This document shows, in pieces, positions 883 to 61,069 of a DNA stretch of 64,000 nucleotides (its first letter is position 1; every line of letters starts with the position of its first letter). Where the stretch lies: assembly GCA_964655595.1 (NCBI GenBank), contig CAZZPQ010000001.1:144-64143 (forward strand), written 5' to 3'. A model generated the notes under the pieces. It was not told where the DNA came from. It searched no databases and was given only the letters and a program-made list of their open reading frames with translations. A program made the translations under genes and the position numbers. This stretch comes from an uncultured bacterium. Lineage in GTDB: Bacteria; Deinococcota; Deinococci; Deinococcales; Trueperaceae.

Positions 883-957
883 TATTACCGAGCCCGATAC
901 ATTGGTTGAAAATTTGGAAAGCGCTTCCCCGCTTCCTACTCGCCTTGCTCGGGATAA
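883..957 (+). repeat. F1 intergenic repeat, short form (~75 bp)
   Basis: TATTACCGAGCCCGATACATTG...CTTCCTACTCGCCTTGCTCGGGATAA aligns with the 5' two-thirds of the other F1 copies. It lies in a divergent intergenic region. Confidence 0.7.
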
Positions 958-968
958 CTTGAACCTGT

Positions 969-1433
969 TTGAGTTATGCTAAAGCATATCGATGCGCCAC
1001 TGTTTACAACTCTTTTAAACTCGCAAAAACCGATACACTTATGACCGTGATGAAACCTCCCAAGTTACCCATTACTCCCGTGCCACACAATGAGCTAAGA
1101 CCCGAGCTGTTTCCCAGGCGAGGCGCATCCCTTGATGAGATTGTGGCACTTGGCTATACCTTCGACGGCTACGCCCACCTGGGTATGGAGGCTTGTGCAG
1201 CCCTGGCGAATGACAGTCTTAACCACTACTATGCAACAGGTGAGTTAAAGATTGAGGAGCTTGATGAGCTGAGAAGCTGCCTCTTTTTTGAAGCACGTCG
1301 CTGGAGTCTCTATGCTCAGCATCCTGATACCAAAGCAACGATTTATATCTTCGCCTTGATTGATGCCTTAAAGGAAAAAGTTCCGGGTAGTGGTTCAAAG
1401 GAAAATGCTGATTCTACGATGGGAAATGCCTGA
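969..1433 (+). CDS. hypothetical protein (start uncertain; first ATG at 1041)
   Basis: A 154-aa ORF from TTG, or 130 aa from ATG 1041. I recognise no family. Small hairpins follow the stop (around 1510-1555). Confidence 0.4.
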   Translation: MSYAKAYRCATVYNSFKLAKTDTLMTVMKPPKLPITPVPHNELRPELFPRRGASLDEIVALGYTFDGYAHLGMEACAALANDSLNHYYATGELKIEELDELRSCLFFEARRWSLYAQHPDTKATIYIFALIDALKEKVPGSGSKENADSTMGNA

Positions 1434-1638
1434 ATTCCTATCCATACGTGCTTGTAACCGGTTGTTTTGTGCCAATAGCAGTTATGCTCGAGCCCCTACC
1501 AGGTTTCGGTCTTGAGCAAGACTCGAGCCTTAAAGCCTTCTGGGCTTTAGGACATTTATCCTCAATAGTATCGGCAAATTTTTTGCAGTGACGATTAACG
1601 GCAAATGAAGCCAGTTATCGTGATAGCCTGTTTACGAT

Positions 1639-1878
1639 ATGAGCTGGAGCAATCTGCGATACACAGTGAAGGAAGCTCAATTAAAGGCCCTCGAGGCTGA
1701 GCGAACAGGTATGTGGCATTTGGTCGTGCAGCAGTACATCTATTGTTTAAAGTACGCGCACAAGGTCGGTAACAAGGAAGCAATCAAGTTTTTCGCTGCC
1801 AAACTCAGTCGGGCCTACACGGCTATGGCTATGACTGAAAAGGCCAGTTATTATTCGACCCTGGCAAAGGAGCGCTAG
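1639..1878 (+). CDS. hypothetical small helical protein
   Basis: A 79-aa ORF with an ATG start and no obvious Shine-Dalgarno. The composition is helical and I recognise no family. Confidence 0.3.
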   Translation: MSWSNLRYTVKEAQLKALEAERTGMWHLVVQQYIYCLKYAHKVGNKEAIKFFAAKLSRAYTAMAMTEKASYYSTLAKER

Positions 1879-1941
1879 CTGTAAGCCTTTTGAAGAAACG
1901 GGTTTAATAAAACAGCGTGACCGATTTCATATAATACCTCC

Positions 1942-2097
1942 ATGAATCCTGAGTCACTTATTGCGCTGACTGTCTTAATTGTCATCCTCTATATCGCATT
2001 TCGCGTGGGAGCAGTTCTAATGCGCCTGGCGCTCGGACTGCTCGCTATTGGCATTGTAGCTTGGCTGGTAATGCGGCTGGTGGCTGCGCCCCAGTAA
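1942..2097 (+). CDS. possible 51-aa two-helix membrane peptide (below the ORF-track cutoff)
   Basis: My own translation from ATG 1942 to TAA 2095-2097 is MNPESLIALTVLIVILYIAFRVGAVLMRLALGLLAIGIVAWLVMRLVAAPQ. It has two hydrophobic segments separated by R/G residues. Confidence 0.3.
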   Translation: MNPESLIALTVLIVILYIAFRVGAVLMRLALGLLAIGIVAWLVMRLVAAPQ

Positions 2098-2105
2098 GCC
2101 ACTTT

Positions 2106-2220
2106 AATATGGAGCCCGATAAATTGATTATAGATTTGAAAAGCAGTTTCTCGGTTCCTAACGCTCTGCTCGGGATAAATCCTTGGGATAAACCCAAGGA
2201 TTTATCCGGAACTGGTATTA
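2106..2220 (+). repeat. F1 intergenic repeat, long form (~115 bp)
   Basis: A full-length copy with a perfect 15-bp-stem hairpin GGATAAATCCTTGGG-ATAAA-CCCAAGGATTTATCC (2173-2207) and the tail GGAACTGGTATTA. Its last 3 nt are the stop codon of the minus-strand gene 2218-3195. Confidence 0.85.
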
Positions 2221-3195
2221 GTAACCCCGTTCTGGGTCAACCAGATTCCTTTTTTCGCCATGCAGCAGGGACACAAGCGTCTTACAGACATCCTCAAAAC
2301 TCACCAGCTCCCAATCCTGATACTGGTTGGCGCGGTGTGGACTCATCACCACGTTGGGCAGCTCATGAAATGCCCTGTTAGCAGGCAAGGTCCCTTGGCG
2401 GGCTTCTTTGCCTTTCGGATAGCTGTACCACACATCAATACCCGCAGCAAAGATTTTATCAGCCTTAAGCGCTTCGTAAAGCGCCTTCTCGTCGATGACA
2501 TCTCCCCTACCCACATTCACCAGAATACTGCCTGTTTTCATAGCGGCAAAGGCAGATGCGTTCAGCAAGCCTCTGGTTTCTGGGGTTAGAGGTAGGCTGA
2601 CGATGACTACATCTGCCTGAGCCAAAGCCTCATAAAGCTCAGCTGGTCCATATTCCTTAACTGAGCTGTTGGCTTGTGGTTGCCGCCGGTAGGCAGTTGC
2701 GTTCATGCCTAAACCCTTAAGACGCCACTCGAGCTCCCGCCCAATTGCCCCATAACCCAGCAGCAGGCAAGTTTTACCAGGCAAGAAGACGGACTCAAAG
2801 GTCTCAGTACCACCTGTCCAGTCACCCTGCCGCAGCGCTCTGTCTGCCTGAACGATGCGGTTACTACAGGCAAACATCAGTGCCAGTGCATGTTGCGCCA
2901 CGAAGGCGTCATTAAAGTGCGAGTTGTGCAAGGTGATGTGGGGTCGCTCAAGAATAGCCTGACGCAGTTTTTCGGCTATACCCACATAGGGCACAATGAC
3001 ATGGCGAAGATTGGCAGCGTCAAGCAGACTCTCATCAGGTGCACCGTCTACCAGCACCTCATACCAGTTCAGATGCGCTTTGGCTTTTTCGCTGTCGGTT
3101 TCAATGATAAGCTTGATATCTGAGTTCAGCTGATCTTGCTTTTGAGGGATAAGTTTGGCAGCCAGTGAACTGCGCCACAGGACATTAAGGCTCAT
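2218..3195 (-). CDS. D-isomer-specific 2-hydroxyacid dehydrogenase family, NAD-binding
   Basis: 325 aa with a Rossmann motif LLLGYGAIGRELEWRLKGLG, and VNVGRGDVIDEKALYEAL and SPHRA motifs typical of the family. Confidence 0.85.
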   Translation of the reverse strand: MSLNVLWRSSLAAKLIPQKQDQLNSDIKLIIETDSEKAKAHLNWYEVLVDGAPDESLLDAANLRHVIVPYVGIAEKLRQAILERPHITLHNSHFNDAFVAQHALALMFACSNRIVQADRALRQGDWTGGTETFESVFLPGKTCLLLGYGAIGRELEWRLKGLGMNATAYRRQPQANSSVKEYGPAELYEALAQADVVIVSLPLTPETRGLLNASAFAAMKTGSILVNVGRGDVIDEKALYEALKADKIFAAGIDVWYSYPKGKEARQGTLPANRAFHELPNVVMSPHRANQYQDWELVSFEDVCKTLVSLLHGEKRNLVDPERGY

Positions 3196-3335
3196 GCTGG
3201 CAATTATATGCAGAGATGCTAGCAGCTGATTGTATCAGCCTCAGGGCAGTCATGAACTGAGTCAGCAGCGGGGACCTGAGTAGAATAAAGCAGGCAAGCC
3301 AGCTTAGTGGCACTGTGGATAAAGGAGATTTGCTT

Positions 3336-4193
3336 ATGCCAGCACAGTTACTCGAGGGAAAAATTGTTGCAAGCGCTGTTCTAGACTCTCTTAAAGCGCG
3401 CATTGAAGACTTGAAAAGCAAAGGAATCACTCCAGGGCTGGGAACCATTCTGGTGGGTGACGATGCTCCAAGTCAAGGTTATGTTCGTAAAAAACACGAA
3501 ACTGCCGAGGCCATAGGCGTCGCATCCTTTCATCAAACTATTCCCAGTAGCGCCAGCCAGAGCGACCTGCTCGCAGCGGTCAAAGCTTTCAATAGCAATC
3601 GACAGGTACACGCTTTTATCATCCAGTATCCAGTGCCCGCAGGCTTTGATTTTGCTGAGGCCATGAGCCACATCCTGCCCGAGAAAGATGCTGACGGCCT
3701 GCATCCAGTCAACCTGGGAAAGCTGGTTTTACAGGAGCCCGGTCCTATTCCCGCCACGCCTGCCGGTATTCAGCAAATGCTACTGCACTATGACATTCCT
3801 GTCGCCGGACGCGAGGTGGTCGTGGTTGGACGTGGCCCAACGCTGGGGCGTCCCCTGGCGCTGCTGCTCAGCATGAAAGCGGCTGGCGCTAATGCAGCTG
3901 TAACCGTCGTTCACTCCGGCATTAAAGACATCGCTCGCTACACCCAGCGGGCCGATATTGTCATTGCTGCCGTGGGAAGTCCGGGTATCATCCGCGCTGA
4001 TATGGTCGCCGAGAGTAGTGTAGTCATCAGCGGAGGCATCACCTGGCAGGGCAAGCGCTTACTACCAGATGTCGATGAGCCTGTCATGGAGCGGGCCAGT
4101 TGGATGACCCCGCGTCTGGGTGGGGTTGGCCCTACTACCGTTGCCATGCTGCTGCGCAACGTGGTCACGGCTGCTGAAGCTATTGGAGAATAA
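3336..4193 (+). CDS. folD: bifunctional methylenetetrahydrofolate dehydrogenase / methenyl-THF cyclohydrolase
   Basis: AAGGAG lies 8 nt upstream of ATG 3336. The motifs LGTILVGDDAPSQGYVRKKHETAEAIG, VVVVGRGPTLGRPLALLL and GGVGPTTVAMLL are diagnostic of FolD. Confidence 0.92.
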   Translation: MPAQLLEGKIVASAVLDSLKARIEDLKSKGITPGLGTILVGDDAPSQGYVRKKHETAEAIGVASFHQTIPSSASQSDLLAAVKAFNSNRQVHAFIIQYPVPAGFDFAEAMSHILPEKDADGLHPVNLGKLVLQEPGPIPATPAGIQQMLLHYDIPVAGREVVVVGRGPTLGRPLALLLSMKAAGANAAVTVVHSGIKDIARYTQRADIVIAAVGSPGIIRADMVAESSVVISGGITWQGKRLLPDVDEPVMERASWMTPRLGGVGPTTVAMLLRNVVTAAEAIGE

Positions 4194-4242
4194 GGTCCGG
4201 GATAAGGTAGACTGAAGATAATTAGGAGGCTTTGGAGGTTTC

Positions 4243-6630: not shown

Positions 6631-6631
6631 C

Positions 6632-7648: not shown

Positions 7649-7672
7649 GCGCCGCTGGGATGCCGGCTTTGA

Positions 7673-10389: not shown

Positions 10390-10391
10390 GA

Positions 10392-10829
10392 TCAGTTGAC
10401 CCCCAGACGGTTAGCCGCGTTTGCCAGGGTTCGTCCGGTGACACAGCGGTCCGCACCCGCATCGTTAAAGCAAACCTCGAGCTCCACAATGGTACTCTCA
10501 GCCGCACCAATAGCCACCGTATCAATGATGGTCACCCTGGCACGGTAGCGGGCCAGATCATTCGTATTAATCCCACCACTGATATCCGTAAACAGCGCTG
10601 GAAGCTGGCCATAGGCCCAAATTGTTTCTGCTCCACTCAGCACACGTGCGTCTCCGCGCGCAACCAGCACGCTCAAAAAGTCCAGCACGGGCACCACCTG
10701 ACTGGTCTGTCCCGCAGTACTGGTACGCCGCAGGTTGGACACCAGTGTCGTGGTGAGAACCGTTGACAGGATGCCCAGAATCGCCACAGCGATAACGACC
10801 TCCATCAGACTCAAACCCTGTTTTTTCAT
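10392..10829 (-). CDS. prepilin-type minor pseudopilin (PilV-like)
   Basis: 145 aa with MKKQG/LSLMEVVIAVAILGIL. It shares an ATGA overlap with the upstream gene. Confidence 0.7.
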   Translation of the reverse strand: MKKQGLSLMEVVIAVAILGILSTVLTTTLVSNLRRTSTAGQTSQVVPVLDFLSVLVARGDARVLSGAETIWAYGQLPALFTDISGGINTNDLARYRARVTIIDTVAIGAAESTIVELEVCFNDAGADRCVTGRTLANAANRLGVN

Positions 10830-11505: not shown

Positions 11506-11511
11506 AGAAAA

Positions 11512-12147: not shown

Positions 12148-12157
12148 GGAGATGAGC

Positions 12158-13069
12158 ATGTCTAAAGGTACCCACGAAGCCCTGCCGGATGAGCGCAATG
12201 CCGGTATCCTTATAAATATCAACGGCGAGTACTATCCCCGTGACGAGGCAAAAATCTCTGTGTTTGACAGTGGCTATCTGGTTGGCGATGGTGTCTGGGA
12301 AGGCATCAGACTGCATGAAGGCAAGTTCGCATTTTTGGACTTGCACCTAAACAGGCTCTATCAGGGGGCCAAAGCCATTGACTTGAATATTGGCAAGAGC
12401 AAGCAGGAATTAAGTGACATGCTCTACGACACGGTGCATAAAAACCAGATGCATAGCAACGTGCACGTGCGCCTGATGGTCACCCGTGGCAACAAGAAAA
12501 CCCCGTCCCAGGACCCACGCCTGACCATCAGCGGACCCAACATTGTGATTATTGCTGAGCACAAGGTCGCCAGTCCAACAGTCGCGGCAAGTGGCATCAG
12601 TCTTTTTACCAGCAGTGTGCGCCGCCCACCCCCACAAACACTGGACGCTAAACTCAACTGCCACAGCAAGCTGCATGAGGTCATCGCTCTGATTCAGGCG
12701 CTCAAGGCCGGGGCCGATGAAGCCCTGATGCTGGATGTTCACGGCAATGTTGCCACCTGCAACGCCACTAATTTTTTTATCGTAACAGGTGGCGAAGTAT
12801 GGACCTCGAGTGGTCAGCACTGTTTAAATGGCATTACCCGCCGCTTGGTGATTGAACTCTGTCAGGCTCACGACATAGCCGTACGCGAACGGGATTTCTC
12901 ACTCACCGACGTTTATAGCGCTGAGGAAGCCTTTGTCACCGGGACTTTTGGCAGCCTCACGCCGGTTGTGCAGATTGATGGTCGGCAGATTGGTGAGGGT
13001 ATACCGGGCGAACTGACCCAGCGCCTGAGCAGACTTTACAAAGCCGCTGTTGCAGAAGTCACCGCATGA
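12158..13069 (+). CDS. class IV (branched-chain / D-amino acid type) PLP-dependent aminotransferase
   Basis: AAGGAG lies 6 nt before ATG 12158. The motifs VFDSGYLVGDGVWEGIRL, HLNRLYQGAKAI and GITR..V fit fold type IV. Confidence 0.85.
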   Translation: MSKGTHEALPDERNAGILININGEYYPRDEAKISVFDSGYLVGDGVWEGIRLHEGKFAFLDLHLNRLYQGAKAIDLNIGKSKQELSDMLYDTVHKNQMHSNVHVRLMVTRGNKKTPSQDPRLTISGPNIVIIAEHKVASPTVAASGISLFTSSVRRPPPQTLDAKLNCHSKLHEVIALIQALKAGADEALMLDVHGNVATCNATNFFIVTGGEVWTSSGQHCLNGITRRLVIELCQAHDIAVRERDFSLTDVYSAEEAFVTGTFGSLTPVVQIDGRQIGEGIPGELTQRLSRLYKAAVAEVTA

Positions 13070-13791
13070 ACAGTCGCCGCATTTCCATGTGGTCCGGGCC
13101 GCGCAACATCTCTACCGCCATTATGTACAGCTTCAGGCAGCGAACGGACACCACCGTGGTCGATGAACCCTTGTATGGCCACTATCTCAGAACCACGGGC
13201 GTCCGCCATCCGGGTGACGCAGAAGTCATAGCACACATGAACTGTGATGCAAAACGGGTTATTCAGGACACACTTCTGGCGACGGGTCCAACAGCCATCC
13301 GTTTTTATAAAAACATGGCCCATCATCTGACGGGTTTAGAGCTGGGTTTTCTGAGCAAACTCGAGAACATCCTGCTGATTCGTGACCCGCGGGAGATGCT
13401 ACCCTCACTGGCCCAGCAGATTCCCGAACCCAGCCTGCGAGATACCGGTCTTGGCGAACAGGTCACTATTCTTGAGAAGCTGCTCGAGCAGGAACAAGAG
13501 CCTATCGTTCTGGATGCCAGAGAGCTGCTACTTAACCCCAGGGGCGTGCTTAGCGTTCTCTGTCAGAAACTCAGACTTTCCTTTGAGGAGCAAATGCTCG
13601 CCTGGGAAGCTGGGCCTAAAGCCGAAGATGGCGTTTGGGCCAGGTACTGGTATCAGAACGTACACCAAAGCACTGGTTTTGAAGCCTATCAGGCTAAAAC
13701 GACTCCCTTTCCAGAAACACTCTCTCCCCTATTGCAAGACTGCCAACCACTTTATGACCAGCTCTATACCCATGCCATCCGAGTGCCCTAA
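13066..13791 (+). CDS. P-loop-like / sulfotransferase-like protein of unknown function
   Basis: 241 aa with an ATGA overlap to the aminotransferase. WSGPRNISTAIMYSF...VVDEPLY and MLAWEAGPKAEDGVWARYWYQNVHQSTGF match, from memory, the N-terminal domain of plant BCAT-like proteins. Confidence 0.6.
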   Translation: MNSRRISMWSGPRNISTAIMYSFRQRTDTTVVDEPLYGHYLRTTGVRHPGDAEVIAHMNCDAKRVIQDTLLATGPTAIRFYKNMAHHLTGLELGFLSKLENILLIRDPREMLPSLAQQIPEPSLRDTGLGEQVTILEKLLEQEQEPIVLDARELLLNPRGVLSVLCQKLRLSFEEQMLAWEAGPKAEDGVWARYWYQNVHQSTGFEAYQAKTTPFPETLSPLLQDCQPLYDQLYTHAIRVP

Positions 13792-13902
13792 TACCGAGCC
13801 CGATAAATTGCTTAAAGATTTCAAAAGCAATCTTCGCTTCCTAACGCTCTGCTCGGGATAAATCATTGGGATAAACCCAATGATTTATCCGGAACTGGTA
13901 TA
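13790..13902 (+). repeat. F1 intergenic repeat, long form
   Basis: A full copy. The hairpin GGATAAATCATTGGG-ATAAA-CCCAATGATTTATCC (13856-13890) carries a compensatory double change relative to 2173-2207. The 5' end overlaps the TAA stop of gene 13066-13791. Confidence 0.85.
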
Positions 13903-14113
13903 AAACCAAAACTGTTGACGCTATCATCCCGACCGCTGGCAGAAGATCAAGCAGTTAGCGACTAGCTGAAAGGCTGTCAACCAAAGACAGGAAGATACGG
14001 AAATGAAGGAGATAAAGGAATAGAGACAATTCTCATCGCTCATTGCTTTTAACTCATTGCTTTTAACTCATTGCTGCCTTTCAGCATTCAACATTGATCC
14101 ACGACCCCAAGAC

Positions 14114-16153: not shown

Positions 16154-16233
16154 AAACTTCTTGCGAAAGTATCAATTGGGCAATCTTAAGGCCGATTAGA
16201 ATCGCTAGCAATCTGGACTTTTGCAAGAGGTCT
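16154..16233 (+). repeat. F2 intergenic repeat (~80 bp, ~20-bp terminal inverted repeats)
   Basis: AAACTTCTTGCGAAAGTATCAA...ATCTGGACTTTTGCAAGAGGTCT. It is near-identical to 34615-34694 and to the reverse complement of 48938-49017. Confidence 0.8.
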
Positions 16234-16380: not shown

Positions 16381-16495
16381 GCTTCAGCTTCGGATAAATC
16401 ATTGGGATAAACCCGGCGATTTATCCCGAGCAGAGCGAGCAGGAACTGAGACACGGCTTCGCAAATCTGCAAGTAATTTGTCAGGTTCGGCAGAA
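16381..16495 (-). repeat. F1 intergenic repeat, diverged copy, the only minus-orientation one
   Basis: The reverse complement aligns with F1: GGATAAATCATTGGG..GATTTATCC CGAGCAGAGCG..AGGAA...CAAATCT..AATTT. It has many substitutions. Confidence 0.55.
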
Positions 16496-25250: not shown

Positions 25251-25334
25251 AATACCGATTCATCTCGCAGGCGTTCTCGCTGCGCTCGGAACCGCTCCGG
25301 TTATCTCTTTACGGATATAACCGGAATTGGCATA
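25251..25334 (+). repeat. F1-related degenerate repeat
   Basis: AATACCGA..TTCTCGCTGCGCTCGGA.. is followed by the hairpin CCGGTTAT..ATAACCGG and then GGAATTGGCATA. This parallels the F1 ends and hairpin position. Confidence 0.35.
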
Positions 25335-27340: not shown

Positions 27341-27482
27341 TCAGGGCCTCCAAAATCCAGTCTCGAACTGGCACAAAGATAGCAGTCGCCATCTTTCACT
27401 GACCCATGGGTTGCAACAAACATGGGCGAAGCGTACTCTAGCACGCTTTAGTCAGCCTAATTCAACCATAGCTTTCACTGCT

Positions 27483-27549
27483 TATACCGAATCCGATAAT
27501 TTCCTTAACGATTGTAAAAACTCCTGCCTTGATTCTTCTCGCTCCGATT
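27483..27549 (+). repeat. F1-related degenerate short repeat
   Basis: TATACCGAATCCGATAATTTCCTTAACGATTGTAAAAACTCC...CTCGCTCCGATT aligns with the F1 short form, with many changes. Confidence 0.35.
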
Positions 27550-33163: not shown

Positions 33164-33331
33164 ACCACACGGCCAAGCTTCGCAACACCTACCTGACTTG
33201 GCAAATGGCTTGCAGAACTCAAAAGCAGCTCCTCGGTTTCGACTCGGTCTTGTGAGGATAATACAGCCGGGCGTATTCTGCACTGCGTTTGGATTTGCCC
33301 GCCAGACGTATTGTTATACAGGTAGGAAACA

Positions 33332-34614: not shown

Positions 34615-34694
34615 AGGCTTCATGCGAAAGTATCAACTGAGCAATTTTAAGGTCGATTAGAATCGCTATTAATCCGGACTTTTGCAAAAGGGCT
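34615..34694 (+). repeat. F2 intergenic repeat
   Basis: AGGCTTCATGCGAAAGTATCAA...CCGGACTTTTGCAAAAGGGCT. It lies 5 nt upstream of an F1 copy. Confidence 0.8.
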
Positions 34695-34699
34695 ATTTT

Positions 34700-34799
34700 T
34701 ATACCGAGCCTGCTAAATTGCTTAAAGATTTGAAAAGCACTTTCCCACTTCCTAACGCCCTGCTCGGGATAAACCAAACAATCTATCCGAAACTGGTAA
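34700..34799 (+). repeat. F1 intergenic repeat, long form with decayed hairpin
   Basis: TATACCGAGCCTGCTAAATTGCTTAAAGATTTGAAAAGC...CTGCTCGGGATAAACCAAACAATCTATCCGAAACTGGTAA. Confidence 0.75.
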
Positions 34800-34870
34800 C
34801 GCGTCCTGCGTCAAAGACTCTTAAAGAAACATCACACCCGGGAATAACAAGCCCTGATATCATCAATGGT

Positions 34871-37731: not shown

Positions 37732-37826
37732 ACCTCACCATACCGCATCAGACTTTGGCATATCTTTGCTGCTGCAAACAAACGGGCGATTCTTGCGAAC
37801 CGCCCTCATACTACATATTCACCTTG

Positions 37827-37845
37827 TTATCTGGAACTGGTATTA
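37827..37845 (+). repeat. isolated F1 3'-tail fragment
   Basis: TTATCTGGAACTGGTATTA matches the last ~19 nt of F1. Its final TTA is the TAA stop (minus strand) of gene 37843-39153. Confidence 0.4.
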
Positions 37846-39153
37846 GGGAAGGATTTGTCCGCGAATCTCACCCGCAGGATTGGCCGCCGAGTGCAGATTG
37901 ATGTACAAAAGACCATCATTAAAGTAGCCAAGCTGCGTATCATCCAATGTAAATACACCAGCAAAAGTTTGAGCGTCATTGTCAAAATCAAAGACAAAGA
38001 GAACGCCTGCGTTAGCATCAGCGGCGGCAGGGCCGTGAATGTGCGCCCCGGGGCCTGCAATTTCAAAGCCAGAGAAACTACCATCAACCACCAGTTTTTT
38101 GCCATAGAGTGTCACAGTAGCACTACCTGTGGAAGTCGTTGCGACAGGCGGAACCTCATTGGCCCCTGAAAGCGACACATCAAGGCTGGTGGGTGGCAGA
38201 AGTACTTGGTCAATAATGTGAATAATGCCATTTGACGCTTCAATATCTGGCATTGTTACAGTTGCACTACCGTTCAGCACAACACTTCCATCAATGACTT
38301 CATAATAGATACTGTTGCCGGCGAAAGCAGTATCAACCGTTGCAGGTGCACTGGCAATCACATCGGCGGCGGACAAGGCTGAGCCAGCGACCACATGATA
38401 AAGCAGGACGTTGACAATCATTTCAGCACCCAGTTTATCAATCAGGCCAGGCAGGTCTTCGACTTCCTGAGCTTCCAGCAAAGCCGCAAAGGCTGCATTC
38501 GTTGGAGCGAAGACGGTAAAGGGACCTGTACCTTCCAGAGTTTCCACCAGATCAGAGGCGACCAGGGCGGCTACTAATGTGCTGAGAACAGCAGTGTCCT
38601 GAGCGATTTCAACAATCGTACCAGGTTCTGGGTCTGGATCGGGGTCTGGGCTGGGGGGCAATAGCACCGCGTTGATGATGTGTACAACACCGTTTGACGC
38701 TGCAACATCGGCAGTTGTTACAGTAGCAGTCTCATTCAGCACGACCTGACCATCCACCACAGCAAAGGCAATACTTGCGCCTTCAAGCAGCGTCGGCGTT
38801 GTGCCGGGCGCAGCCGCGATCACATCTGCTGCCAAAAGTTTACCGGGTGCTACATGGTACTTGAGGATATCCGCCAGATCGTCACTTGCCAGCAGCTCTT
38901 CTTTGGTCAGACCGAGTGCCTCAAGCGCTGCCGCAAAAGCTGCGTTGGTTGGAGCAAAGACGGTAAAGGGACCTTCGCCACCTAACGCGCCCACCAGCTC
39001 AGCAGCCTGCAGGGCTTCAACCAGTATGCTTAAATCTGCTGTTCCCTGAGCAACTTCAGCAATTGTGCCAGGTTCATCTGGCTTTGGTGTACCACAAGCA
39101 GCCAGCAGTAGCACCAGTGCTGGCAGTAACAGCCACGTCAAAAACTTTTTCAT
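37843..39153 (-). CDS. lipoprotein with two fasciclin (FAS1) domains and a C-terminal CHRD domain
   Basis: The start is trimmed to MKKFLTWLLLPALVLLLAAC (lipobox), with GGGAGG upstream. The FAS1 motifs TVFAPTNAAFAA and NGVVHIINAVLLPP occur twice, linked by PSPDPDPDPEPG. The C-terminus LSGANEVPP...AHIHGPA...INLHSAANPAGEIRGQI is CHRD-like. Confidence 0.8.
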   Translation of the reverse strand: MKKFLTWLLLPALVLLLAACGTPKPDEPGTIAEVAQGTADLSILVEALQAAELVGALGGEGPFTVFAPTNAAFAAALEALGLTKEELLASDDLADILKYHVAPGKLLAADVIAAAPGTTPTLLEGASIAFAVVDGQVVLNETATVTTADVAASNGVVHIINAVLLPPSPDPDPDPEPGTIVEIAQDTAVLSTLVAALVASDLVETLEGTGPFTVFAPTNAAFAALLEAQEVEDLPGLIDKLGAEMIVNVLLYHVVAGSALSAADVIASAPATVDTAFAGNSIYYEVIDGSVVLNGSATVTMPDIEASNGIIHIIDQVLLPPTSLDVSLSGANEVPPVATTSTGSATVTLYGKKLVVDGSFSGFEIAGPGAHIHGPAAADANAGVLFVFDFDNDAQTFAGVFTLDDTQLGYFNDGLLYINLHSAANPAGEIRGQILP

Positions 39154-39272
39154 TAAACTTGCCTCCCATTTCTTGGTATTCCTACAGTCATACAGTATGT
39201 GATTTTTCACATGCTCAACTATAGGCATGCCTACAGTTTGCCTTTCACAAAGTCACAAAGGCACGAAATCAC

Positions 39273-39877: not shown

Positions 39878-39950
39878 CATACCGAGCCCGATAAATTGCT
39901 TAAAGATTTGAAAAGAACATCCCCGCTTCCTAACGCCCTGCTCGGACAAA
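39878..39950 (+). repeat. F1 intergenic repeat, short form
   Basis: CATACCGAGCCCGATAAATTGCTTAAAGATTTGAAAAGAAC..CGCTTCCTAACGCCCTGCTCGGACAAA. Confidence 0.75.
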
Positions 39951-47421: not shown

Positions 47422-47427
47422 CTCACT

Positions 47428-47544
47428 TATTACGAAGCTCGATAAATTGAGTATAGATTTGAAAGGCAGTTCCTCGCTTCCTACTTGCTCTGCTCAGCAT
47501 AAAGCATTGGGATAAATCAAACGATTTATCCGGAACTGGCCTTA
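47428..47544 (+). repeat. F1 intergenic repeat, long form, moderately diverged
   Basis: TATTACGAAGCTCGATAAATTGAGTATAGATTTGAAAGGCAGTTCCTCGCTTCCTACTTGCTCTGCTCAGCATAAAGCATTGGGATAAATCAAACGATTTATCCGGAACTGGCCTTA. Confidence 0.75.
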
Positions 47545-47548
47545 GCCA

Positions 47549-48760: not shown

Positions 48761-48781
48761 CATGCCGCTATTAAATTTGCT

Positions 48782-48896
48782 TATACCGAGCCCGATAAAC
48801 TGGTTATAGATTTGAAGAGCAGTACCCTGCTTCCCACTTGCCCTGCTCCGGATGAATCATTGGGATAAACCCAAGGATATATTCGGAACTGGTATA
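48782..48896 (+). repeat. F1 intergenic repeat, long form
   Basis: TATACCGAGCCCGATAAACTGGTTATAGATTTGAAGAGCAG...CTGCTCCGGATGAATCATTGGGATAAACCCAAGGATATATTCGGAACTGGTATA. Confidence 0.8.
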
Positions 48897-48937
48897 AACA
48901 ATGAAATGACGTTAGGCAACTTACTGGTCTGAACATT

Positions 48938-49017
48938 AGACCTCTTGCAAAAGTCCAGATTGATAGCGATTCTAATCGGCCTTAAGATTGCCCAGTTGAT
49001 ACTTTCGCAAGAAGTCT
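48938..49017 (-). repeat. F2 intergenic repeat (inverted orientation)
   Basis: Its reverse complement is near-identical to 16154-16233. Confidence 0.8.
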
Positions 49018-50771: not shown

Positions 50772-50915
50772 ATTTGCTCCCTTTATGATTTGCTAGAAGG
50801 CATTGTGATCACTCTGTGCGATAAGCACATCAGCCATGTGGCAAGGTAACTGCCAGTAACTGTTGGCTCGAGTATTCTCCATATCCCTTACATAATTTAC
50901 CTCCCTTTTTCCAGG

Positions 50916-51194: not shown

Positions 51195-51203
51195 AAGCCT
51201 CCT

Positions 51204-53990: not shown

Positions 53991-53998
53991 AGACTCCT

Positions 53999-55084: not shown

Positions 55085-55355
55085 CCACAACTCCCAGAAT
55101 CGTAGTATATATCCAGACTATCCTAGTCATCCAACCCGTTATGCGCCAAGCGGCTTTATTGCTATAGCCGGTTTGAACCTCGCTTAGAGTGCTTTAGTCT
55201 ATGTTAAGTTGCCTGAACAATGCAAGTCCTGGTGGTTCTGCAGTTTTACAACACGACCTTATTACACCGTAAAATAGATGTTGATACCCATATTTCGCTT
55301 AAAACTCCATACTTGGTCAAGAATCCAAGTATCAGAACTAATCTTACGGTGTACT

Positions 55356-55430
55356 TATACCGAGCCCGATATATTAATTATAGATTTGAAGAGCAGTGCC
55401 CTGCTTCCCACTTGCCCTGCTCGGGATAAA
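55356..55430 (+). repeat. F1 intergenic repeat, short form
   Basis: TATACCGAGCCCGATATATTAATTATAGATTTGAAGAGCAGTGCCCTGCTTCCCACTTGCCCTGCTCGGGATAAA. Confidence 0.8.
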
Positions 55431-55478
55431 ATGTCCTATCTCAACCTACAGCCCAAGAAAGGGAGTCAGGTGCTGGCC

Positions 55479-56228
55479 TTAGCCCAGCTCGCGGCCACCA
55501 TCAACCGGAATAATACAGCCCGTTGAAACCCTTAGGCTGGTTGCCACCGCCAACACCGCAGCTGCCACATCTTCGGCAGTAGCTAAACGCCCCAGCGGCG
55601 TTTTACTTTTTTGCTCCTCCAGAGTACCAGCAGGCATTTTCCTGGCATAGTCTCCCAGAACAAAACCCGGCGATACCGAAACTACCCGAATCTGGGGAGC
55701 CAGAGCCCGGGCCAATGAGCGTGTCACAGAGTCGAGGGCAGCTTTAGAAGCGCAATAGGCCACATTACTGCCTACGCCTGTCCGTCCGGCAATTGAAGAG
55801 ATGTTAATAATCAGTCCCTCAGCCGAACCCATAAGCAGGGATTTAAAAGCACGAACGCTTGCCAAAGCACCCCGCACATTGACCCGAAATATACTGTCGA
55901 CAAGCTCGTCATCCAGCGCGTCAAGGTCATCATGGGGCACTGGGCGGGTAAACCCGGCATTATTGACCAGAATATCCAGCTTGCCATACTGGTCTTTGAC
56001 CCTTGCCGCAAGGGCGGTCAGCGAAGCGCTGTCATCCACGACAGCTCGAGCAAGCATATGCCCTGTACCCGGCAACTCAGTCACTAAACGCTCTGCCTCC
56101 TGCTGACTACTACGGTAGGTCACAACGACCTTTGCACCTGCGTCAGCAAACTGCCGACACATCGCCGAGCCAATGCCCCCAGCCGCCCCCGTAACGACAA
56201 CAATTTTATCTGTTAGTTGCTGCACCAA
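55479..56228 (-). CDS. short-chain dehydrogenase/reductase (SDR)
   Basis: 249 aa with TGAAGGIG, NNAG and the YCASKAA catalytic motif. Confidence 0.9.
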   Translation of the reverse strand: MVQQLTDKIVVVTGAAGGIGSAMCRQFADAGAKVVVTYRSSQQEAERLVTELPGTGHMLARAVVDDSASLTALAARVKDQYGKLDILVNNAGFTRPVPHDDLDALDDELVDSIFRVNVRGALASVRAFKSLLMGSAEGLIINISSIAGRTGVGSNVAYCASKAALDSVTRSLARALAPQIRVVSVSPGFVLGDYARKMPAGTLEEQKSKTPLGRLATAEDVAAAVLAVATSLRVSTGCIIPVDGGRELG

Positions 56229-56259
56229 ATCCTCCTAACTGCCGTATGAACTGAGTGTT

Positions 56260-56375
56260 ATACGGAGCCCGATAAATTGATTATAGATTTGAAAAGCAGT
56301 TCCTCGCTTCCTACTCGCTCTGCTCGGGATAAATCCTTGGGATAAACCCAAGGATTTATCCCAAACTGGTATTAC
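56260..56375 (+). repeat. F1 intergenic repeat, long form
   Basis: Nearly identical to 2106-2220, including the perfect hairpin GGATAAATCCTTGGG-ATAAA-CCCAAGGATTTATCC and the tail AACTGGTATTA. Confidence 0.85.
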
Positions 56376-56550
56376 CTACCATTGTCATGACATTTGCGAA
56401 GTATTAGGGTGAAGCGTAGCGACAACATAAGCTCGACTTGATTACTTTTCATAAGTACCTTTGGCGAAATTGCCCCGCGCCTATGGCGCTCAAAGTGACG
56501 GGATTGCTTCGGCTGTTATGCCAAGACAGCTCGCATTCCATTACCTCCCT

Positions 56551-57852
56551 CTACCTCCCTTTTTCCTTCACCTCCCTGCCCTTATACCGCTCCACTCGCA
56601 GCGTTGCCTGACGTTTATGTCCGGCAAAACCTTCCATTTCACAGATTTTGGCGCAGTTCTCTCCGATAATCACGCTGGCTTCTGGCGTGCACTTCTGATA
56701 CGTCACTGTTTTGAGAAACTTGCCCACCCACAGACCACCCGTATAGCGGGCCGCCCCGCTCGTCGGCAGAATATGATTGGTGCCAATGGTTTTATCACCA
56801 TAAGCGACGTTGGTCTCTTTGCCCAAAAAGAGCGAGCCGTAGTTGGTCAGGTGCTTGAGAAAGTAATCGGGGTCTTCGGTCAGAATTTCCACGTGTTCAC
56901 TGGCGATGCGATCAGCCTCTTGCAACAGCTCCTCATCGGTATCCACCAGAATAATCTGCCCATAGTCACGCCAGGCTTGCCCGGCCACCGCAGCGGTCTC
57001 GAGCGTCTGGAGTTGCTTATCGATTTCCGCCTGAATGCCTTCTGCCAATGCAGCACTGCTGGTGAGTAACACCGCTGGCGAATTCACACCGTGCTCGGCC
57101 TGTCCCAGCAGGTCGGTAGCGACCATTTCAAGGTCAGCACTGTCGTCAGCGATGACCAAAATTTCCGTGGGCCCCGCAAAAAGATCAATCCCCACCCGAC
57201 CGAAAAGCTGGCGCTTGGCTTCAGCAACAAAGGCGTTGCCAGGACCAATCAGCATATCTACAGCTGCGATACTTTCGGTACCCAGCGCCATAGCACCAAT
57301 CGCCTGAATACCGCCCAGTACATAGATTTCATCGGCCCCCGCCAAATGCATCGTCGCCACGGTTGCGGCGTAAGGCTTGCCATCCTTGGGTGGGGTAGCA
57401 GCAATGACACGCCTGACACCAGCCACTTTGGCAGTCGCAACACTCATGATGGCAGACGCCAGCATCGGATAGCGCCCACCAGGAACGTAGCAACCTACAG
57501 CATTGATGGGAATATGCCTGTGACCCAGGATGACCCCGGGCAGGGTTTCCACTTCCAGATCCTGCAAGGTTGCGCGTTGTGCCTTGGCAAAGTTGCGTAC
57601 CTGCTCGAGACTAAAACGAATAGCCGCCAGCTGGTCTTCGGGAACCTCTGCCACGAGTGCGCCGATCTCGGCGGCTGACAATCTGAAACTCTCCGGGCTG
57701 TAATGATCAAAACGTGCCGAAAGTTCGCGCACCAACTGGTCGCCACCCTCTTCGATGCGCTTTAGCGTGTCCTCAACGACCTGCCTCACCTGGCTGTCCA
57801 TATCTTGCTTGACAGTCTGTGCCATACCCGCCTTGATGATGCTTATTGCCAC
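56551..57852 (-). CDS. histidinol dehydrogenase family (HisD-like) NAD-dependent dehydrogenase, probably not biosynthetic HisD
   Basis: I place the start at GTG 57852. AGGAGG lies 7 nt upstream and overlaps the stop of the preceding gene. HisD-like motifs are present ([20 protein letters not shown]). No other his genes are nearby. Confidence 0.85.
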
Positions 57853-57865
57853 AGCGATACCTCCT

Positions 57866-58867
57866 TCAGCTATCGACAAGCTGCATGAGCACTGCCAACT
57901 CATCAAAAAGCATATAGTGCCTGCTTATTTTATTATCTTTAACATGCACCTGACTCAAACCCAGGATTGTCACGGGGCGCTGACTGGCCAGACCATAAAA
58001 ACCATTCACAGCGTGTGTGCCTTTTAAACACCAGCGCACAGCTACGCGAGCGCCATCTGCTTCATTTTCCAGGCTGTAGATATGCTCAAGCGTCATACTG
58101 GCATCAGGAAACTGGGCCATGAGACCTAAATGATAGTTACGGATGCCGATCAGGCTACTGATTTCCTGGTGACCGGGCAAATGCAGGCTCGAGCCCTCAG
58201 CATACACCTCTGCCAGATGGTTAAAATGCCTGCCGTTAAAGACCGCATCAAACATGTTGCAGACCATCGTCTCCGCTGGCGACATGACATTTGGCAAGTC
58301 CGGCACGGTATTAAAAGAGGGTAATTTAGCGCCAGCAGCGCGGGCAATGTCCCAGGGATCAAAGCCCAGTTGCCTGACCAGCGCCATACTATCGCGCACG
58401 AGCCACTCTTCTACGATGCGGTTTTCCTTGACCAGACAATTGGCAATGGCCCAAAACTCAGCCGGCTTGCCTGTGGGCGCTCCCCAGGGACTGTAGCCTG
58501 TATTGCTCGCCGTATTCATAATCAGATGCGAAGTGTGAAAACCAGCGTCATTGTCGCCTGACCAGATCACATCTTCAGCCACCATGCGCCGGTCCGGCAT
58601 GGCAGCCAAAAACGCAACAGAGCCACTGACGACCTCCTCCACCCCTTGCGCCGTACCGTAGCCAGTGTGTACCTTGAGATCAGCCTTGTAGGTTTCACGA
58701 ATGTAGCCCATGTCCGCCTCTTCCCAGATGCGGTAGGTGATTTTGACAATATAATCGACGATGTTCTGGTACTGGGGTTCAAAGCCGTGCAGTGTCTGCC
58801 TGGCCGGAAACCTGCCCAGCCGCTTAAGCTCACTCAGGTTTTGCTCGAGTGAATAGGTAGCGCTCAC
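57866..58867 (-). CDS. tandem NTF2-like / SnoaL-like (ester cyclase-like) domain protein
   Basis: 333 aa with a GTG start sharing one nt with the cupin stop (TAGTG). It has two SnoaL-like halves (IWEE..., [12 protein letters not shown]; FNGRHFNHL...). Confidence 0.6.
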
Positions 58868-59469
58868 TAAGCTCCCAGTTTTTCCAGCATTTGCCGCTCG
58901 AGTTCTGCATAGTTCTGTGGCTTGATCATCTTGCCTTTGTCATCGGCATGAAAGCCGTGCTCAGCAGCCTGCCTGATAACCTCGGGGGCCCAGTAAGGGT
59001 CTTTACCTTCAAAGACCTTATGCTGCTCCAAAACTGCAAATATCCAGGCTTCACCTTCCTGACCTGGCAAAACTTCAAAACCCCGCCAAAGCGCAGGAGG
59101 CAAGGAAATCAAATCCCATTGTCCAATAATGGTTTCACCATCCACCTTATCCGCACTTTCCCCCCAGTAAAACCGCCACTGGTGCTCGGTTAAGGGTACG
59201 AACGCCTCGATATAGTCATGGGTATGATAAGCGGGACCGTTACCGGCTGTGGCTTTAACCATACCGATCTGAAAGCCATGCGGCGCTGTAATAGCTGGTT
59301 GATAGTCGGGGTTTTCACTGGCGGTATCACCAATGACCGCGTAGTTAAGCCGCTGATGCCCCGGCAGAATGCTGTCAATAAACATCAGGCTTACCGGATG
59401 CTGCCTGAGTTCATTAAATCGCATTACACGCCCGGTCATTGCTTCCAAATGCTCAGTCTTATCACTCAT
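58867..59469 (-). CDS. cupin-domain protein
   Basis: 200 aa with AGGAGG upstream of the ATG. The cupin metal motif is GNGPAYHTHDYIEAFVPL. Confidence 0.65.
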   Translation of the reverse strand: MSDKTEHLEAMTGRVMRFNELRQHPVSLMFIDSILPGHQRLNYAVIGDTASENPDYQPAITAPHGFQIGMVKATAGNGPAYHTHDYIEAFVPLTEHQWRFYWGESADKVDGETIIGQWDLISLPPALWRGFEVLPGQEGEAWIFAVLEQHKVFEGKDPYWAPEVIRQAAEHGFHADDKGKMIKPQNYAELERQMLEKLGA

Positions 59470-59544
59470 ATTTCCTCCTGATAGCTATTGTATTGCGGCA
59501 TGGCGCCTATCTCTGACGACCCTTTCTATCATCTTTCTATCATT

Positions 59545-59560
59545 ACGAAATCGTTTTCGT
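59545..59560. promoter_or_regulatory. imperfect 16-bp palindrome ACGAAATCGTTTTCGT, candidate LacI/GalR-type operator
   Basis: 14 of 16 positions are self-complementary with a central CG. It lies in the divergent 305-bp control region. Confidence 0.35.
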
Positions 59561-59675
59561 CCTTTCAGTTATACAGCACAAAGGCGACACAATGCAAGTT
59601 CATACATGAATTACGTGAGACTATACAGCAGGGTATTGCAAGAAGCCCTGCTTATAGTGTAGAGTATCGAAGTAT

Positions 59676-59689
59676 CGAAAACGTTTTCG
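59676..59689. promoter_or_regulatory. perfect 14-bp palindrome CGAAAACGTTTTCG, candidate LacI/GalR-type operator
   Basis: It is exactly self-complementary with a central CG and AAAACGTTTT core, as in many LacI-family boxes. It lies 86 nt upstream of the SBP ATG. A third, weaker copy GCAAAACGTTCTCG is at 59734-59747. Confidence 0.5.
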
Positions 59690-59774
59690 CCAGCTTAGCA
59701 GCAAGGTAGTTTCTTTTGTCACACATTCATCCAGCAAAACGTTCTCGGTAAAGATACTTTAGGAGGAACAAGGT

Positions 59775-60989
59775 ATGAAACGAGTTTTGTTAAGCCTGAT
59801 AGCCCTGTTCATGCTGAGTGCCAGTATTGCCTGGGCCCAGTGCAACACGTTAATCACCACACCCGTCAGTTCGCTGTCCAATAGTTTTGAGGCTTGGAAA
59901 GTTGTTACCAGTGCTATGGCAGAATGCGGCAATCTCAGTGCCGAACTCGACGCCGAGTTCAGACTCAAGCAGGTTGCGGCCTTCGCTGCCAATCCGTCCC
60001 AGTATGCCATTGGTGGCGTCTCTAACGCCACACTGGTACCGCTTTTGAATGATGGGCTGGTACGTCCACTCAACGATCTGGTGGAACGCTACGGTCAGCA
60101 ATTAACAGAAAATCAACTCATCATTGTTGACGGGCAAATTGTGGCCATCGCCATGATGGTCAATGCTCAGCACCTGATGTACCGCAGCGATATTCTTGAA
60201 GAGCTGGGGCTGGCAGTTCCTACAAGCTATGAGGAAGTCCTGGCAGCGGCCGAGGTCATTCGGGAAGCGGGCGTGGTTGATTATCCGCTGGGTGGTACCT
60301 TTGGCGCAGGCTGGAACTTGGGCGAAGAGTTCGTCAACATGTATCTGGGCTTTGGGGGCAGCTTTTTCGATGCCGACAACACCGCCACCATCAATAATGA
60401 ACAGGGTATTGCCGCGCTCGAAATGCTCAAGGCATTAAGTCAGTACATGGACCCTGAGTACCTGAGTGCCGACTCAACAGTGGTCCAGCAGCAACTCCAA
60501 CAGGGCAAAATCGCCATAGCTAACCTGTGGGCCTCCAGGGCGGGTGCCATGGATAATCCAGATGAATCTGAGGTAGTCGGACTGATTGACTTTGCGGCTG
60601 CGCCGGCTGCTATGGCGGGAGCTGCGCCAGCCACAACGCTGTGGTGGGACGGTATGGTCATTGCCCAAAATATCAGTGACGCAGAAGCCGAAGCAGCTTT
60701 TCAGTTGATGATGGAAGGTCTGAAACATGAAGTCCTGGCTGCCCATGCCGACGCTGCCATTTGGCTCTCCAACCAACCCATTGAGTCGCGCATTGCCAAA
60801 GGCGCAGTTGCATCGTCCAGAGCAGGTGCGCCTTCCTATCCCTCTTCAAACGCCATTGGCCTCATCCATACGGCTGCCGGCAACAACATCGCCGACTTTT
60901 TAACGGGTAGAAAATCAGCCGAGGCAACCCTGCTTGCCATTGAAGAGGAATACACCATTGCTGCTAAAGAAGCTGGTCTGATTCGCTAA
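59775..60989 (+). CDS. carbohydrate-type ABC transporter substrate-binding protein
   Basis: 404 aa with AGGAGG upstream and a signal peptide MKRVLLSLIALFMLSASIAWA. It has solute-binding family 1 character. Confidence 0.85.
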   Translation: MKRVLLSLIALFMLSASIAWAQCNTLITTPVSSLSNSFEAWKVVTSAMAECGNLSAELDAEFRLKQVAAFAANPSQYAIGGVSNATLVPLLNDGLVRPLNDLVERYGQQLTENQLIIVDGQIVAIAMMVNAQHLMYRSDILEELGLAVPTSYEEVLAAAEVIREAGVVDYPLGGTFGAGWNLGEEFVNMYLGFGGSFFDADNTATINNEQGIAALEMLKALSQYMDPEYLSADSTVVQQQLQQGKIAIANLWASRAGAMDNPDESEVVGLIDFAAAPAAMAGAAPATTLWWDGMVIAQNISDAEAEAAFQLMMEGLKHEVLAAHADAAIWLSNQPIESRIAKGAVASSRAGAPSYPSSNAIGLIHTAAGNNIADFLTGRKSAEATLLAIEEEYTIAAKEAGLIR

Positions 60990-61024
60990 ACACAAATACT
61001 GCCAACAGCCACAGTGTATTTCAG

Positions 61025-61069
61025 CCTGGTATGCCGATTCCGGATAAATCCACCCTCTGGAATCGGCAT
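61025..61069 (+). repeat. intercistronic hairpin containing an F1 end fragment
   Basis: An 11-bp stem ATGCCGATTCC / GGAATCGGCAT (61031-61041 and 61059-61069). TTCCGGATAAATCC (61038-61051) is a 14/14 match to the inverted F1 3' end, preceded by CTGGTAT. Confidence 0.4.

Follow-up and report, generated by a model that had tools for sequence, protein, structure and literature searches.

The closest known counterparts of the repeat family described here, which we call F1, are the Tourist-type PIF/Harbinger MITEs and the IS5-family MITEs (IS1031/IS427/ISL2-like). Like F1, these are small noncoding elements with TIRs that reach high copy numbers and form several sequence families with common termini. 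They also duplicate a 3-bp AT-rich TWA target as F1 does, following the rule that IS5 and PIF/Harbinger elements generate 3-bp TSDs at AT-rich targets (PMC4122938). F1 differs from them in having no transposase with matching ends in the assembly, in an orientation and a hairpin loop that follow the replication strand, and in a sequence unrelated to anything in the collections searched. To our knowledge, ordinary cut-and-paste elements do not follow the DNA replication strand.

Correia elements, the MITEs of Neisseria, are ∼100–150 bp long, with inverted-repeat ends that start with TA and hundreds of intergenic copies that can form hairpins, and F1 resembles them in each of these respects. The duplication is nevertheless TA (2 bp) in Correia elements and TWA (3 bp) in F1, and the two sequences are unrelated; we know of no report of replication polarity for Correia elements. 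REP/REPIN sequences share with F1 an abundance of intergenic palindromes, long persistence, and vertical inheritance within one lineage (PMC3337134). They are mobilized by RAYT, a Y1 transposase whose gene has the same REP on its flanks, and they have neither TIRs nor TSDs, whereas F1 has a TSD and the only RAYT-like gene in its genome carries palindromes other than F1. Orientation that correlates with fork movement as read from GC skew, which F1 also shows, has been described for IS200/IS605, IS91, ISL3, and some IS5a elements (Gomez et al. 2014, PMC3971601). Those are autonomous elements whose bias was attributed to the transposase; F1 is a noncoding derivative with unpolar sister families, and its internal loop re-orients independently of the element.

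F1 is an abundant and old family

We built an nhmmer model from the F1 copies in the 64-kb stretch of DNA analyzed here (the window) and searched the 3.55-Mb draft genome to which it belongs, a 275-contig MAG that is 96% complete. The model found 482 loci, or one per 7.4 kb (1.3% of the genome), bearing out the initial annotation's estimate of hundreds of copies per genome. Among them were 277 full-length copies (∼112 nt), 109 copies of the 5′ module only, and 37 hairpin-only copies, the last counted after merging reverse-strand matches into full copies; a large separate hairpin-only class was rejected, as it consisted mostly of reverse-strand matches to the palindrome within full copies. Of 412 orientable copies, only 10 lay mostly within a called gene, and copies were enriched in spacers between convergent genes (25% versus 14% of spacers). 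The host is an uncultured lake-microbialite bacterium, whose IF-2 has its best matches in Deinococcus (56–60%), a result that does not fix its placement.

Nearest copies are ∼91% identical, and no copy is less than about 1% diverged from the one closest to it, leaving no truly recent insertion to examine. The family is old and now inactive, a fossil population. It is also confined to one species-level lineage: a BLAST search of the consensus against 40 relatives, none of them congeneric, and an exact-pattern scan for the hairpin across all GTDB species representatives both returned 0 matches. Six matches to the right end in JGI metagenomes were all chance 19-mers in unrelated sequence. Loci in other assemblies were either identical or had the contig broken at the element (Logan contigs break there), and no empty site or presence–absence polymorphism was seen in those assemblies.

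Copies in the window

All seven long and all four short copies reported previously were recovered within a few bases (E down to 7e-39), and the strand bias noted at the time held, with 11 of 12 detected copies on the + strand. Six of the full copies are on that strand. The copy at 2105..2224 (nhmmer score 133.5, E=7e-39, and sequence) has TAA at its left flank (2105–2107) and TTA at its right (2218–2220), the latter being the stop codon of the minus-strand gene 2218–3195; its loop reads ATAAA on the + strand. The copy at 13789..13903 (score 130, and alignment with an independent assembly) is bounded by TAA at 13789–13791 and 13901–13903, the left TSD being the stop codon of gene 13066–13791. 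The copy at 34699..34800 (score 88.5) belongs by length class to a 99–100-nt variant with a 13-nt deletion between two direct GGGATAAA words, and further full copies lie at 47429..47547 (score 103.8), 48781..48899 (score 115.2), and 56258..56378 (score 132.1). The sole inverted copy, at 16385..16493 on the − strand (score 82, and sequence), is full but diverged; with respect to its 5′ module its loop is inverted, which keeps ATAAA on the + strand.

Short forms on the + strand were found at 884..958 (5′ module only, model positions 3–76; score 66, E=5e-18), 39879..39948 (score 68.6), and 55355..55430 (score 65.4), together with a degenerate 5′ module at 27482..27546 (a weak nhmmer match, E=0.0016) and a weak 5′-module remnant at 33200..33262 (E=0.0013) that had not been listed before. 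Three intervals first reported as fragments turned out otherwise on closer definition. Interval 25251–25334 does have similar termini but contains a complete copy of a sister MITE family, F3 (25257..25330, − strand; F3 model score 73), with termini TACCAATTCCGGTTAT.../...GAATCGGTA and TAA/TAA flanks. A TIR scan and the sequence identified 37827–37845 as a solo right end of F1 (37826..37842, + strand; ...TCTGGAACTGGTA then TTA) and 61025–61069 as a small TIR-only palindromic relative without assigned strand (61032..61066; TGCCGATTCC...GGAATCGGCA).

Structure, target site, and element class

The F1 core (TACCGAG...CTGGTA, ∼112 nt) ends in imperfect 18–19-nt TIRs (TACC...GGTA), TACCGAGCCCGATAAAT at the left and TACCAGTTCCGGATAAAT as the reverse complement of the right end, which are conserved in a 250-copy alignment. 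Each TIR carries the word CCSGATAAAT, which is probably where the transposase bound. The word occurs a third time inside the element, and this internal copy forms a 15–18-bp hairpin by pairing with the right end; the consensus has the perfect 15-bp stem described earlier. On either side of full copies is a 3-bp TSD, TWA, in agreement with the IS5/PIF-Harbinger rule. The W is the same at left and right in 137 of 147 copies (TAA 71, TTA 66, discordant 10), and the two alignment columns are linked (p=1e-33). The favored context has C at −1 and G at +1 (CTWAG), and in 32 of 222 full copies the TSD is exactly the TAA stop codon of the flanking gene. The idea that the short forms are MITEs in their own right, with a separate TSD, was rejected, as their right-hand TAA is constant and mismatches the left flank.

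At least five further repeat families are present in the genome. Those termed F3, F5, and F6 have F1-like termini (TACC..CCG), those of F2 differ, and MITE copies are nested within one another. The TWA TSD, the TIRs, the F1-like termini of sister families, and the nesting together identify F1 as an IS5/PIF-Harbinger-type MITE, and neither a Correia element nor a REP/RAYT sequence. The initial annotation was thus right about a non-autonomous, TIR-bearing mobile element with no transposase nearby, and mistaken in reading the ends as Correia-like TA, the actual duplication being TWA. Taken as a whole, F1 is probably a non-autonomous cut-and-paste MITE of this type with a superimposed replication-linked polarity.

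An autonomous IS with F1 ends, for which the initial annotation had proposed looking, was not found in the assembly. Searches with PF01609 and PF13586 found a single IS5-family pseudogene (DUF4096 + DDE_Tnp_1_2) with no F1-like inverted repeats around it, and PF13359 had no match in the assembly. Assembly-wide, no IS-sized pair of F1 ends enclosed a transposase; the pairs found were neighboring MITEs around ordinary genes. Neither an autonomous partner nor an intact partner transposase was therefore found in this 96%-complete MAG; repeats often stay unbinned in MAGs. Insertion at TWA sites, often precisely on TAA stops, with duplication of 3 bases suggests that an IS5-family/PIF-Harbinger DDE transposase, now absent from the assembly, acted on F1 in trans.

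Two other identities were considered. The hairpin and the replication-strand polarity recall single-strand transposition, and a REP/REPIN-like or IS200/IS605-derived element that a Y1 (HUH) transposase moves in single-stranded form would naturally acquire lagging-strand polarity; a PF01797 search did find one Y1_Tnp gene in the assembly. This sole RAYT-like gene, however, is on a contig of odd composition and is flanked by unrelated GGGACAGTGACC palindromes, and Y1 elements do not make TIRs with a 3-bp TSD. F1 thus lacks both hallmarks of REP/REPIN–RAYT systems, the absence of a TSD and a RAYT gene bordered by the family's own palindrome, and the Y1 reading, already contradicted by the TSD statistics, is highly improbable. 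We give equally little credence to F1 as a functional structured RNA, a terminator, or a 3′-UTR stabilizer with pairing under selection. The hairpin is stable, and the copies lie between genes, with an excess between convergent ones, but orientation is independent of the flanking genes, neither strand has a T-run after the hairpin, and the whole window had no Rfam match at the gathering threshold. In the 5′ module, standard pairing in the helices equals the independence expectation, and folding is no better than that of shuffles (z = −0.4). A compensatory change (A-T versus C-G, model positions 79/95) had been taken to show preserved pairing. It is real in the copies cited, but family-wide these positions form a standard pair in 56% of copies versus 47% expected by chance, and paired positions vary as under independence. 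Only the long hairpin is structured, as a built-in palindrome; selected RNA structure is not supported.

Orientation and loop polarity follow the replication strand

The initial annotation had proposed plotting orientation against GC skew. With replication direction read solely from GC skew in the 275-contig MAG, F1 strand tracked the local replication-type skew in 277 of 382 cases (p=8e-19), the C-rich top strand of F1 lying on the chromosome's C-rich strand in ∼73% of copies. No contig with an interior skew switch was found in the assembly; we take the G-rich strand to be the leading strand and the C-rich strand its presumed template. Adjacent copies on one contig were on the same versus the opposite strand in a ratio of 155:75. 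The link with skew remained once gene orientation was corrected for (odds ratio 6, p=1e-12) and gene majority did not predict F1 strand (p=0.72), ruling out gene orientation as the cause, as the earlier reading of the window had suggested. A polar KOPS/Chi-like word inside F1 was also rejected: the top skewed octamers are absent from F1, and GGGTTT, which is generally skewed, is the only skewed word overlapping the loop. Other families had no strand bias (F3 12:16, F2 27:30). The lack of bias in F3, despite its F1-like termini, argues against a generic transposase effect, and the failure of sister families to align with the replication strand dissociates the polarity from the transposase and links it with the sequence that bears the hairpin.

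The 5-nt hairpin loop is polar in its own right. On the C-rich strand it has the sequence ATAAA in 84%–90% of copies, in either element orientation (124/149 full, 18/22 truncated, and 7/7 hairpin-only). This polarity is independent of gene direction (47:50) and holds with genes on the G-rich strand (41:6) and on the C-rich strand (33:2). Compositional skew predicts only ∼54%. The predicted single-strand hairpin energies of the two loop states are −14.8 and −14.7 kcal/mol, a difference of 0.1 kcal/mol, and the general AT skew is too small, so neither hairpin stability nor AT skew accounts for the loop polarity. Flipped-loop copies do not form a subfamily: loop state is unlinked to the 5′-module subfamily markers (all p>0.1), which are themselves tightly linked to one another (p down to 1e-32). 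Position 95 is associated with loop state (p=0.005), as is flank column 118, though weakly (p=0.02). Flips of the loop have been recurrent. In every age class the fraction of canonical loops (0.73–0.77) equals the fraction of elements whose top strand is the C-rich one (0.68–0.73), and the closest-related ("youngest") copies are polar already.

Origin of the polarity

We infer a post-insertion origin for the polarity. The loop would have been inverted in place, many times, by exchange between the two arms of the hairpin, so that TTTAT is on the presumed lagging-strand template wherever ATAAA is on the C-rich strand. The polarity could then reflect strand-specific selection, or direction-dependent flipping and loss of a hairpin exposed as single-stranded DNA at the fork. 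It is quite possible, although we put it forward tentatively, that the hairpin behaves as a replication-strand sensor, its loop and sometimes its inner stem being inverted until TTTAT faces the lagging-strand template and element orientation being filtered likewise. Alternatively, orientation may have been set at insertion, if the lost transposase or a hairpin-bound host factor coupled integration to the fork, for example through the beta sliding clamp; F1 would then enter with a fixed hairpin polarity, and flipped-loop donors would enter the opposite way. Such a model predicts the equal loop and strand fractions found in each age class and fits the polarity of the youngest copies, and it has a precedent in the replication-oriented IS families and in the beta-clamp-binding peptides of several transposases, including IS5a (PMC3971601). 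It is harder to reconcile with the unbiased F3, which has F1-like termini, and F2, which does not. A double-strand DDE reaction also has no obvious means of reading a 5-nt loop, and truly recent insertions are absent from the sample. We therefore regard it as possible but doubtful.

A third option is co-option of the hairpins as host sites, single-stranded on the lagging-strand template, with selection keeping their polarity; a priming or primosome-assembly signal and the binding site of a fork-associated protein are examples. The excess of loop polarity over the skew expectation, which folding energy does not explain, and the equal polarity of the hairpin-only mini-elements would fit. We nevertheless consider co-option unlikely, given that the hairpin has no known protein partner, that 44% of copies have a mismatch at stem position 79/95, that the 109 short forms have no hairpin at all, and that F1 is limited to a single species-level lineage.

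Discussion

F1 is a new MITE family, which alone would be routine. What is unusual is that two independent asymmetric parts, a 5′ module that cannot flip and a hairpin loop that flips recurrently, both follow the replication strand rather than transcription. If the hairpin does act as a replication-strand sensor, it would reveal either a strand-directional inversion at small palindromes that has not been described before or selection acting on the dispersed hairpins, hundreds of them, because as single-stranded DNA they serve a function at the fork. Should a closed genome confirm the polarity, F1 would caution that apparent compensatory changes in palindromic repeats need not mean RNA structure. 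It would also offer a natural system of more than 180 loci in which to study processes that act differently on the two strands at small palindromes, among them template switching, hairpin extrusion, and selection on single-stranded DNA structures, as well as a practical way to read replication direction from draft genomes.

Census of the F1 family

We built an nhmmer model of F1, a repeat with a core of ~112 nt (a 5' module followed by a long hairpin with a 5-nt loop), from six long copies in the window, refined it with 250 genomic copies, and searched the window's own 3.55-Mb draft genome (275 contigs). The 767 hits, many of which struck one element twice through a reverse-strand match to its palindromic hairpin, merged into 482 loci, which bears out the earlier expectation of hundreds of copies per genome. 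These comprised 277 full-length loci, 109 with the 5' module only, 37 with the hairpin only, 36 that were 5'-truncated, and 23 others, with a summed length of 45.8 kb (1.3% of the genome).

A repeat search of the window recovered the family where the initial annotation had placed it. All copies listed there fell within our set, which gained one weak addition at 33200-33262; of the window's 12 F1 loci, 11 lie on the + strand. Only part of the assignment of three "fragments" to F1 stood: 37826-37842 is a solo F1 right end, 61032-61066 is a mini palindrome made up of terminal inverted repeats (TIRs) only, and 25257-25330 (- strand) belongs to a sister family, F3, of which it is a complete copy. 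A 99-100-nt variant, represented by 34699-34800 in the window and by about 22 copies across the genome, has a deletion between two direct GGGATAAA words and has lost the 5' arm of the hairpin.

The window has other repeated sequence. Its top octamers are mostly CTCGAG-centred, and the commonest, GCTCGAGC, which occurs 24 times in the 64 kb, is a palindrome over-represented in the manner of HIP1. A 158-nt direct repeat (38471-38628 and 38918-39075; 72% identity) inside ORF 37843-39228 implies an internally repeated protein, and a 36-nt overlapping palindrome (39198-39257) lies just upstream of this ORF.

F1 is a MITE with a 3-bp target duplication

Where both ends could be located (209 full copies), the left flank reads T-W/ATACC... 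and the right flank ...GGTAT/W-A (W, A or T). Of the 147 copies with flanks of this form, 137 had the same W base on left and right (TAA in 71, TTA in 66, discordant in 10), and the two alignment columns were linked (p = 1e-33). The element proper is therefore TACCGAG...CTGGTA, with a 3-bp TWA target-site duplication (TSD) on either side, around which C is favored before and G after. Its ends are imperfect inverted repeats (TACCGAGCCCGATAAAT versus TACCAGTTCCGGATAAAT) that share the word CCSGATAAAT; a third, internal occurrence of this word forms the 15-18-bp hairpin with the right end. One TSD was exactly the TAA stop codon of the adjoining gene in 32 of 222 full copies (in the window, 13789-13791 and 2218-2220), and in these cases F1 inserted at the stop codon and restored it.

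As a rule, IS5 and PIF/Harbinger transposases generate 3-bp duplications in AT-rich targets (PMC4122938), and F1 is thus a MITE of the IS5/PIF-Harbinger type. The initial annotation had likened its ends to the TA ends of Correia elements; a Correia-type element, with TA, is ruled out by the 3-bp TWA duplication and its concordance in 137 of 147 copies.

An end-motif scan of the genome uncovered relatives with F1's TACC..CCG termini, namely, F3 (40 loci), F5 (27 loci, palindromic), F6 (16 loci), and TIR-only minis. F3 and F5 are often fused into a 144-nt unit; examples of sister MITEs are found at C20:37-180, C64:657-800, and C148:1673-1816 (C numbers denote contigs). Elements nested within elements were also seen (C141:774-988, C14:11898-12115, C60:8466-8642, and C65:13650-13871). 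A further sister MITE family, F4, has 41 loci. F2 is a second family of MITE-like elements (about 80 nt, termini TAGACYTCTTGCRAAAG) with 79 loci genome-wide; each of its window copies, at 16156-16233(+), 34615-34693(+), and 48938-49017(-), has an F1 copy no more than about 150 nt away.

Partner transposase, age, and distribution

The initial annotation had seen no transposase in the window. Our search of the assembly for an autonomous IS with the same ends revealed no IS-sized pair of F1 ends that enclosed a transposase. The single IS5-family ORF of the assembly (C25, about 10.4-11.15 kb; domains DUF4096 and DDE_Tnp_1_2) is a pseudogene interrupted by three or more in-frame stops; no recognizable terminal repeats were found around it, and none like those of F1. 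A search of the assembly with PF13359 gave no match. The only Y1_Tnp (RAYT-like) gene (C105:237-~900) is bracketed by GGGACAGTGACC-type palindromes unrelated to F1; neighboring ORFs are atypical in composition, and this contig may be mis-binned.

F1 copies have a mean pairwise identity of 80% and a nearest-copy identity of 91%, with no identical pair; the family is therefore old and, judging from this divergence, probably immobile at present. We found no exact match to the hairpin pattern in any other GTDB species representative, and BLAST with the consensus gave no match in 40 relatives, drawn from 24 further genera of the same family and from other families within the order; the host genus consists of this species alone. 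Six matches to the F1 right end in JGI metagenomes were all attributable to chance. Proteins identical to those flanking F1 were found in assembly data from Lake Alchichica microbialites (PRJNA315555) and also in two Logan assemblies, where the contigs end at the F1 element. A comparison of IF-2 returned Deinococcus sequences as its best matches, at 56-60%.

F1 orientation follows replication-type GC skew

Neighboring copies on one contig tended to agree in strand (155:75, p = 1e-7). Orientation was compared with the GC skew of the 10-15 kb on either side after masking the elements, a check proposed in the initial annotation; in 277 of 382 cases, the C-rich strand carried the F1 top strand (Fisher p = 8e-19). 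When skew was split into a replication component and a coding-strand component, the former still predicted F1 strand (odds ratio 6, p = 1e-12), and local gene majority had no predictive value (p = 0.72). Replication direction here is read from the skew of a fragmented MAG, with the G-rich strand taken as leading; no contig spanning a skew switch was found in the draft genome.

With respect to its two neighboring genes, the orientation of F1 was near random (++ 88, -- 69, +- 74, -+ 69), which upholds, beyond the 11 of 12 window loci on the + strand, the earlier reading of a bias independent of these genes. The window's 11:1 ratio follows from its skew, which is negative throughout. Short forms were at least as biased (37:7 at an absolute skew of at least 0.03). 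The sister families showed no bias (F3 12:16, F2 27:30, F5 12:9, F4 7:16); the bias of F1 is therefore not generic to the enzyme that moved elements with these ends. Across 2 Mb oriented by skew, the most strand-skewed octamer was TGCGGGTG (130 on the G-rich strand vs. 31), a candidate polar word of the KOPS or Chi type; none of the top-ranked skewed octamers occurred within F1.

The hairpin loop has its own polarity

In about a quarter of full F1 copies, the loop reads TTTAT rather than ATAAA relative to the copy's own 5' module. Loop state was unlinked to any of the 5'-module subfamily markers, themselves tightly interlinked. It was associated only with position 95, which lies nearby (p = 0.005), and to a weak degree with flank column 118 (p = 0.02); flips between the hairpin arms are thus recurrent and do not mark a subfamily. 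ATAAA lay on the C-rich strand in 124/149 full copies, 18/22 5'-truncated copies, and 7/7 hairpin-only elements. Where the 5' module pointed in the minority direction, the loop was flipped to the majority polarity in 26 of 40 full copies (Fisher p = 7e-11); the single inverted window copy (16385-16493) is likewise flipped, with ATAAA still on the + strand.

Loop polarity was unrelated to gene direction (47:50) and equally strong with flanking genes on the G-rich (41:6) or C-rich (33:2) strand. AT skew (0.02-0.04) would by our arithmetic yield only about 54:46, and hairpin stability was also rejected as a cause, with predicted single-strand energies of -14.8 versus -14.7 kcal/mol for the two loop states.

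RNA structure

The initial annotation had argued from a compensatory double substitution that pairing is preserved. Rfam returned nothing at gathering score. In a set of 250 distinct full copies, every predicted 5'-module helix had the proportion of standard pairs expected from independence of the two columns (observed vs. expected, for example, 0.54 vs. 0.54, 0.69 vs. 0.66, and 0.65 vs. 0.65). Pair-breaking variants were common in the 5' module (A-C in 108 copies, G-G in 64, G-G in 66), which folded no better than shuffles (z = -0.4). The long hairpin, a built-in palindrome, is the only structured part. At the position of the cited substitution (79/95), 56% of copies pair versus 47% expected, an excess partly due to loop inversions carrying that position along; template-switch correction of quasi-palindromes would also account for it. 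Pairing at the independence level, together with these other explanations of the 79/95 excess, leaves the compensatory-change argument for a selected structure unsupported.

Origin of the polarity

The main rival to a polarity acquired after insertion is that insertion itself senses hairpin polarity at the fork. Published binding of IS transposases to the beta clamp (PMC3971601) supports such sensing, as does the finding that canonical loops and majority-orientation elements are equally frequent in all age classes; the unbiased sister families weaken it. Neither orientation nor replication is mentioned in a 2024 review of prokaryotic MITEs (PMC10969869), and our literature search found no paper on replication-polar MITEs or loop resetting.

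We favor acquisition after insertion. In this reading, F1 spread as an IS5-type MITE and is now a fossil. Its polarity would for the most part postdate insertion and come from a process linked to replication that acts on the hairpin while the lagging-strand template is single-stranded. That process would be selection, or else inversion and loss that depend on direction.
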